Shown: positions 61,321-61,730 of the stretch, piece after piece
Numbering within the stretch: the first letter of the stretch is position 1
Layout of the letters: every line of letters starts with the position of its first letter
Position numbers and translations under genes: made by a program
The notes under the pieces: generated by a model
What the model was told of the DNA's origin: nothing
The model's input: the letters and a program-made list of their open reading frames with translations, nothing else
Database searches by the model: none
Source of the DNA: an uncultured Clostridium sp.
GTDB taxonomy: Bacteria; Bacillota; Clostridia; TANB77; CAG-508
DNA: 64,000 nucleotides
Assembly (NCBI GenBank): GCA_947165355.1
Contig: CAMUZZ010000001.1
Span: 2,067-66,066 of the forward strand
Direction: 5' to 3'

Positions 61321-61415
61321 TTTATCCCCTTATTTTGCTTTGTTATATAATCGTATACACGCAAAAACTTCTCACTTTTTCGTGAATTATTTCTGCACAA
61401 AAAATTTGCTATAAC

Positions 61416-61600
61416 ATAAAAAGCCCCGCTTTAGCCGTAATAACTAGTGAAATTTTAAGGACCTGCTTTCACAGGTGGGTATCTTGTTGAATGCTCCTGG
61501 GCTTCTTAATAACACATAAGCTTGCACGCCACATTCAAAGGCAGATTCCCGTTTAATCCGCGTTGGTTCTAAAATTCCATTCTACACGTACTATGCAGGG
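61416..61600 (-). ncRNA. Candidate roughly 185-nt structured sRNA (6S-RNA-like size and closed-end architecture); identity unresolved
   Basis: No coding frame. 45-50% GC island against a 27% background. 5' CCCUGC pairs with 3' GCGGGG, followed by a U5 run. Internal ACCUGU-GAAA-GCAGGU GNRA-capped hairpin. Confidence 0.3.
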
Positions 61601-61730
61601 ATTTATTAATTATTTTATTATAATAATGGTATCATATTTGCATTATTATTGCAAGTTATTTAACTAAAATTCACACTCTATTCACAATCTAAATTTGCAC
61701 TTAATTTTCATAAAAATAAGTACTGAATTA

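Follow-up and report, generated by a model that had tools for sequence, protein, structure and literature searches.

The window, by which the whole 64-kb stretch of DNA analysed here is meant, carries on its minus strand the genes recO and prmC (Table 1), with Era upstream of recO and WhiA downstream of prmC as further neighbours identified with NCBIfam. PrmC is responsible for release-factor methylation, and WhiA is a regulator of cell division and sporulation. Between the start of prmC at 61320 and the stop codon of recO, which begins at 61731, lies a spacer of 410 bp (61321..61730), the length reported in a preliminary description of the sequence, and its open reading frames are just two mechanical ones of 38 and 34 aa on the plus strand. 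The same description had seen in this spacer an island of 45–50% GC in a 27% genome. The island itself is borne out, given that 61419..61604 is the GC-richest 186-nt stretch of the 64 kb and only 0.016% of 186-nt windows reach its GC content; the earlier figures are somewhat too high, the island having about 42% (42.5% for 61419..61604, 42.7% for 61416..61600) against 29.6% in the whole window, with 22.3% in the remaining spacer.

Some other features of the window deserve a brief mention. The whiA gene (59600..60482, minus strand) changes frame along its length, so that it appears as an N-terminal ORF of 32 aa and another of 235 aa, the intact WhiA of relatives being 291–296 aa long. The frameshift is explained by a single extra C at 60398 (GCT-C-GGATAT, where relatives read ELAGYLIS), and the split reflects an error in the assembly or else a gene that has recently become a pseudogene. 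Between era and recO, a small ORF (62413..62604, minus strand; sequence …IAWNTFKNTGDINTFMELVEVEN…) overlaps the start of recO and seems to resemble the YqzL-family small protein found at the same place in Bacillus. Further away, a 1070-aa ORF (39334..42546, minus strand) combines a long low-complexity tract rich in asparagine, (NNNV)n, with leucine-rich-repeat-like repeats at its C-terminus.

Table 1. Coordinates of the features at the recO–prmC locus (window positions; RNA numbering refers to the 6S RNA).
Feature	Position	Strand	Remarks
recO	61731..62456	-	upstream neighbour; TIGR00613, 170.3 bits
-35 element TTGCAA	61649..61654	-	TTGnnn in 30/30 loci, 17 nt from the -10
Extended -10 element	TATG 61633..61636, one nt, TACCAT 61626..61631	-	TRTGn + TAnnnT in 30/30 loci
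A/U-rich 5' leader (putative)	61605..61619	-	from transcription start to closing stem
6S RNA (ssrS) gene body	61419..61604	-	186 nt, 42.5% GC; RF00013, 98.2 bits; near copies 86–93% identical
Closing stem, 5' strand	61586..61603	-	RNA 2–19; pairs with 61421..61437
Predicted pRNA template AUUUUAGAACCAAC	61562..61575	-	RNA 30–43; from alignment to E. coli U44
5' central bulge	61551..61568	-	RNA 37–54, 18 nt; putative open-promoter mimic
Apical (internal) stem and terminal loop	61477..61550	-	RNA 55–128
3'-side hairpin ACCUGU-GAAA-GCAGGU	61461..61476	-	RNA 129–144, 6 bp; opposite the bulge
Closing stem, 3' strand	61421..61437	-	RNA 168–184; pairs with 61586..61603
U-run	61418..61422	-	directly after closing stem; T-run after GGGG in relatives
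Weak hairpin	61358..61384	-	window-specific; 6S–prmC spacer, outside the conserved element
prmC (release-factor N5-glutamine methyltransferase)	60484..61320	-	TIGR03534, 285.8 bits (cutoff 199.1)

Identity and fold of the spacer RNA

6S RNA is a familiar small RNA; it imitates an open promoter and sequesters RNA polymerase. In the preliminary description the GC island had been read as a structured minus-strand RNA of about 185 nt with the closed-rod shape of 6S RNA, and an Rfam 15 scan of the whole 64-kb window, the check proposed there, returns precisely this: the 6S/SsrS family RF00013 is matched over positions 1–187 of the 187 of its model, at more than twice the gathering score (46.4 bits; E 1.8e-18), and the match is confined to the minus strand and to nearly the same coordinates. 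Only two matches in the window reach the gathering score, the 6S RNA and one tRNA (tRNA-Trp, 43318..43392), so that T-box (RF00230), SRP, tmRNA and RNase P are all without a match at that threshold in the whole 64 kb, in agreement with the earlier reading as far as T-box and SRP are concerned; a comparable scan does pick up T-boxes in two of the related loci described below (L089 and L095). Two copies checked in near relatives score 99.5 and 99.7 bits. The length and rod shape of 6S RNAs (about 160–200 nt) are found here too, with 186 nt and helices 82–98% paired in 29 sequences. Because the full-length RF00013 match falls at the coordinates and on the strand first proposed, and because covariation is found in relatives, we regard 61419..61604 as almost certainly the ssrS gene of an uncultured gut bacterium (low-GC Clostridia), encoding a canonical 6S RNA. 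Against this stands the view that Rfam-based 6S calls are tentative until RNA polymerase binding, product RNA synthesis and refolding with release are demonstrated (PMC10578484). The gene is an ordinary and standard one, of an already known kind and automatically annotatable.

The fold was assessed by mapping the Rfam consensus structure onto two alignments, one of 10 near relatives (92% identity) and one of 29 distinct sequences from the RecO- and PrmC-based scans, with slid pairing partners as the control. In the 29 distinct sequences, the covariation check proposed at the outset gives a compensatory change in 19 of the 50 consensus pairs, versus 3–6 when the partners are slid, and the share of paired cells is 86.7%, versus 30–48%; among the 10 near relatives, compensatory changes occur at 4 pairs versus 0–1. 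The 29-sequence alignment was fitted to the covariance model, which favours structure, and RNAalifold on a MAFFT alignment provides an independent fold; the size of the contrast and this independent fold both argue that the 6S fold is real. The single-sequence fold is modestly better than that of shuffled sequences (z -1.89).

At the base of the rod, helix 1, the closing stem, is 86.8% paired in the 29 sequences, with compensatory change at 6 of 17 pairs. The ends that had been noticed in the sequence, CCCUGC and GCGGGG on the minus strand, do pair, with one U-G wobble, and are followed by C and UUUUU; the six pairs are kept in 29/29 distinct relatives, except for one cell at one pair (column 11/215). 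The 5' central bulge is unpaired in the Rfam consensus, in the MFE fold and in the RNAalifold consensus. Just below the bulge, the helix fits better when its register is moved relative to the Rfam consensus: as RNA 26–36/147–157 it is 96.5% paired with 2 covarying pairs, versus 81.6% in the Rfam register, which has mismatches in the window sequence. The apical helices 3–5 are 85.6–98.3% paired, 12 pairs showing compensatory change. Opposite the bulge, the 3'-side hairpin (-7.6 kcal/mol, z -2.8; pairing probability 0.86–0.99 in the free RNA) had been described as a perfect GNRA hairpin. The hairpin is present and is 98.3% paired in the 29 sequences with one compensatory pair; it is short of perfect in that its closing pair is U-G, and the GNRA loop is not conserved, the loop varying among GAAA, GCAA, UUCG, GGUU and others. 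A hairpin at the equivalent place opposite the bulge is reported in B. subtilis 6S-1 and in the 6S of lactic acid bacteria (LAB; PMC8414754).

Predicted product-RNA template and transcription signals

In E. coli the 6S product RNA (pRNA) starts at U44 (PMC3299989). The Rfam alignment sets the motif GAACCAAC of the window against E. coli GAGCCGAU (GAgCCgAa in the Rfam model), the last U of which is U44, and because C43 of the window RNA aligns with this residue in the Rfam model, we infer a pRNA start opposite C43 (61562), giving the product 5'-GUUGGUUCUAAAAU. The template is identical in 25 of the 29 distinct sequences, the others being a UUACC variant compensated on the 3' strand (L090 and L092) and single-base variants (L145 and L148). 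The predicted pRNA has G first and GG at positions 4/5; for known pRNAs a purine/G start is reported, along with GG conserved at 4/5 or 5/6 (PMC8414754), and B. subtilis sigma-A polymerase initiates efficiently with G (PMC3923129). The template base beside the predicted start is G in the genus of the window and A in most of the more-distant relatives, and in known 6S templates an adenine usually adjoins the pRNA start. In silico, the duplex of the template with a 14-mer pRNA has -16.6 kcal/mol, and when the template is blocked the 3' hairpin stays intact and the 3' strand at 147–157 is freed.

The 6S gene has its own conserved promoter of the sigma-A type with an extended -10. In all 30 loci, TTGnnn, exactly 17 nt of which the last five are TRTGn, and then TAnnnT are found upstream of the 6S sequence, against a background expectation of 0.014 occurrences of the whole motif per 130 nt; within the -10 hexamer, T1, A2 and T6 are invariant in the 10 near relatives. 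The TACCAT of the window is the weakest of the 30, relatives having TAATAT, TAAAAT or TATATT. A simple promoter/terminator scan missed this promoter because the window hexamers match at 8/12 positions only. The one promoter candidate that it returned overlaps the start of prmC and was discarded, and its one terminator candidate is the 3'-bubble hairpin read from the wrong strand. The same promoter class (TTGnnn, 17 nt with TRTGn, TAnnnT) has eight matches in the window altogether, among them one just upstream of tRNA-Trp (43318..43392; promoter at 43275, plus strand) and one upstream of rpmE, which encodes ribosomal protein L31 (42708..42908, minus strand; promoter at 42982, minus strand).

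From the position of the -10 element, transcription would begin near 61619. Between the -10 and the closing stem lie 14–35 nt, or 79–80 nt in three loci, and the leader sequence is not conserved, which implies that the 5' leader may be dispensable, as in B. subtilis 6S-1, where it is trimmed by RNase J1 and dispensable (PMC10578484). At the other end, at least 4 T within the 9 nt after GGGG are present in 29 of 30 loci, and the U-run is the probable 3' end of the 6S RNA, with a putative function as a leaky terminator.

If it behaves as 6S does in E. coli and 6S-1 in B. subtilis, the RNA, some 190 nt long, would fold into a rod with a large central bulge that imitates an open promoter; it would bind the housekeeping sigma-A RNA polymerase holoenzyme and sequester it under nutrient scarcity. 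On a rise in NTPs with nutrient upshift, the polymerase would use the 6S RNA as template from C43 into helix 26–36, yielding the predicted pRNA, whose extension would unzip the helix below the bulge, displace the 3' strand, refold the RNA and release the polymerase. The basis of this scheme is established 6S biology (PMC8414754, PMC10578484, PMC3923129). In addition, some transcription would pass the U-run into prmC and whiA.

B. subtilis 6S-1 (BsrA) is, like the window RNA, a Firmicute 6S of about 190 nt with closing stem, 5' bulge, opposite hairpin and apical stem, and has a 5' leader ahead of the mature end (PMC10578484); its G-initiated pRNA GUUCGGUCAAAACU resembles the predicted one, as does the 6S-2 pRNA AAAGGUUAAAACUU, both B. 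subtilis sequences being those given in PMC3923129 (see also PMC8414754). The two differ in the position of the GG of the pRNA (4/5 in the window prediction, 5/6 in B. subtilis 6S-1) and in the location of the gene, which in the window has recO on one side and prmC on the other, with probable read-through into the latter. The 6S RNA of C. difficile (RCd3, CD630_n00410) is likewise clostridial and has a sigma-A promoter; it occurs in forms of about 200 and 175 nt, suggesting primary and processed transcripts, and the two sizes are consistent with the variable putative leader in the clade of the window (PMC3649979). Expression of RCd3 was validated experimentally, whereas that of the window 6S is predicted. 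E. coli 6S (SsrS) belongs to the same Rfam family, shares the open-promoter-mimic architecture and has an aligned pRNA start (U44/C43); it differs in that the downstream gene is ygfA instead of prmC (then whiA) and the initiating nucleotide is A instead of the predicted G.

Gene neighbourhood and rival explanations

A RecO-based scan with one genome per species gave 80 loci, all from uncultured gut Clostridia, the closest named RecO relative being Clostridium sp. CAG:492 (81%), with CAG:567, CAG:508 and CAG:793 at 61–66%. Candidates for the recO–6S–prmC order were the 11 nearest loci (RecO 80–84%), 9 of them with sufficient downstream sequence, and in 9/9 of these assessable relatives a 6S copy lies downstream of recO. 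The conservation of the GC island, which the preliminary description had put up as a check, is thus seen in nine related genomes (copies 86–93% identical), and the flanking spacer is not alignable. In the other 69 loci, with RecO at 61–68%, 6S and prmC are both absent within 4 kb of recO, and recO was rejected as a conserved partner of 6S on these grounds.

A PrmC-based scan of metagenome contigs also gave 80 loci, with PrmC identities of 41–63%, and a covariance model built from the 10 near 6S sequences finds 6S in 46 of them: on the same strand 14–259 nt upstream of prmC in 38, on the same strand 1.1–1.9 kb upstream in 7, and on the opposite strand in one (L132). With this model, 24 loci are without 6S although 300 nt or more are available upstream of prmC, and RF00013, run on 20 PrmC loci lacking a match, finds no 6S either; in the remaining 10 of the 80 the upstream sequence is too short for a decision. 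In nearly all loci, prmC is followed by whiA. It is therefore prmC–whiA downstream, and not recO upstream, that forms the conserved partner of 6S, and since 24 loci lack 6S and Rfam is negative on 20, the linkage belongs to a single clade and does not hold universally. In one group of loci (L084:1236-2930; also L082, L085–L087 and L147), 6S and prmC are separated by an inserted 564-aa ORF of unknown function, and a truB-like ORF, not recO, lies upstream of 6S; prfA was considered as the inserted gene and rejected. Two loci without 6S carry T-box leaders (95 bits) about 1.9 kb downstream of prmC (L089:5712-5935 and L095:5711-5934).

The 6S–prmC spacer of the window is 98 nt long, and no convincing separate prmC promoter was found in it by eye and by motif search. 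In seven loci (L002, L006, L130, L092, L011, L004 and L081) the ribosome-binding site of prmC is only about 15–30 nt past the U-run; there is no space for a prmC promoter, and prmC would therefore be transcribed through the 6S gene. Others (L098–L113, L140, L129, L148 and L090) have, ahead of prmC, a hairpin terminator of its own kind together with a new promoter of the extended -10 type. For the window, we infer partial transcription past the U-run into prmC–whiA from the spacing and by comparison with E. coli ssrS–ygfA. A second hairpin in this spacer (61358..61384) had also been pointed out. It is present (-6.2 kcal/mol), though not as a conserved part of the element, since it is absent from all relatives, has no copy elsewhere in the window and has a z-score of only -1.15, with 29/200 shuffles folding as well; weak, unconserved and without U-tail or repeat, it was rejected as a terminator or regulatory element. 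Elsewhere, one relative has two direct copies of a unit of about 85 nt (…TTGGCGC(A/G)(C/A)GAACAAAGACGCGGACGATAAAATGTTATAAACAGATGCGAATTAAAAGATGTCCGCTTTTGTTCTATAA…) inserted between 6S and prmC (L009:5010-5500), and the subclade of L098, L099, L100, L113 and L140 has palindromic GGGAC(A/T)GTC…GTCCC units about 10–90 nt past 6S; L099 has them in duplicate, and a separate promoter (TTGATA, 17 nt, TATGGTAAAAT) stands between them and prmC.

The position of the RNA, which in most loci immediately precedes prmC and has the same orientation, and the prmC ribosome-binding sites that in several relatives lie some 15–30 nt past the U-run with no separate promoter, would also fit a cis-acting 5' leader of prmC–whiA (a riboswitch, attenuator or stabiliser) in place of a trans-acting 6S RNA. 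This we consider very improbable: the RNA reaches twice the gathering score of the 6S model and matches no family of riboswitches or leaders, a terminator and a new promoter stand between the RNA and prmC in L098–L113, L129, L148 and L090, a 564-aa gene does so in the L084-type loci, and L132 carries the RNA in the reverse orientation to prmC, the sequence of the RNA being conserved regardless. E. coli 6S, moreover, is co-transcribed with its downstream gene and yet is not its leader (PMC2848244).

A 6S-derived RNA that has lost pRNA release or RNA polymerase binding would resemble the case debated for B. subtilis 6S-2, or Ms1-like RNAs, which bind the core polymerase. The missing adenine beside the predicted start in the genus of the window and the departure of the register below the bulge from the Rfam consensus speak for such an RNA, but the template hardly varies within the clade, conservation extends to the bulge and the 3' hairpin, and the predicted initiator is the G that B. 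subtilis sigma-A polymerase uses efficiently (PMC3923129); we hold it to be slightly less probable still than a prmC leader. As to a functionless stretch, GC-rich by chance or left over from a degraded gene, the weak single-sequence z-score given above is what could be said in its favour, and it is effectively refuted by the Rfam match (E 1.8e-18), by the 86–93% conservation within a flanking spacer that cannot be aligned, by the covariation and by the conserved promoter and U-run.

Possible meaning of the 6S–prmC–whiA arrangement

As a 6S gene, the finding matters little beyond correct annotation. It shows that an uncultured gut lineage with a reduced genome keeps the global 6S regulator of RNA polymerase, and the comparison provides 29 distinct sequences aligned for this clade in particular, as well as a promoter that is defined and a product RNA that is predicted. 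The clade-wide 6S–prmC–whiA arrangement is the only mildly new point. In E. coli, 6S is co-transcribed with the downstream protein gene of ssrS–ygfA, an arrangement whose significance is unexplained (PMC2848244, PMC3299989); 6S–prmC looks analogous, the spacing suggesting co-transcription in the window. It is conceivable, at somewhat less than even chances, that ssrS–prmC–whiA forms a conserved unit with 6S as its first cistron, in which the U-run acts as a leaky terminator or processing point and PrmC and WhiA are made by read-through. If so, the levels of PrmC and WhiA would be coupled to 6S synthesis via the strong 6S promoter, and the unit would be a Firmicute counterpart of the E. coli arrangement. 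The conserved linkage itself adds a little to the problem of why 6S genes so often share a transcript with a protein gene lying downstream of them.
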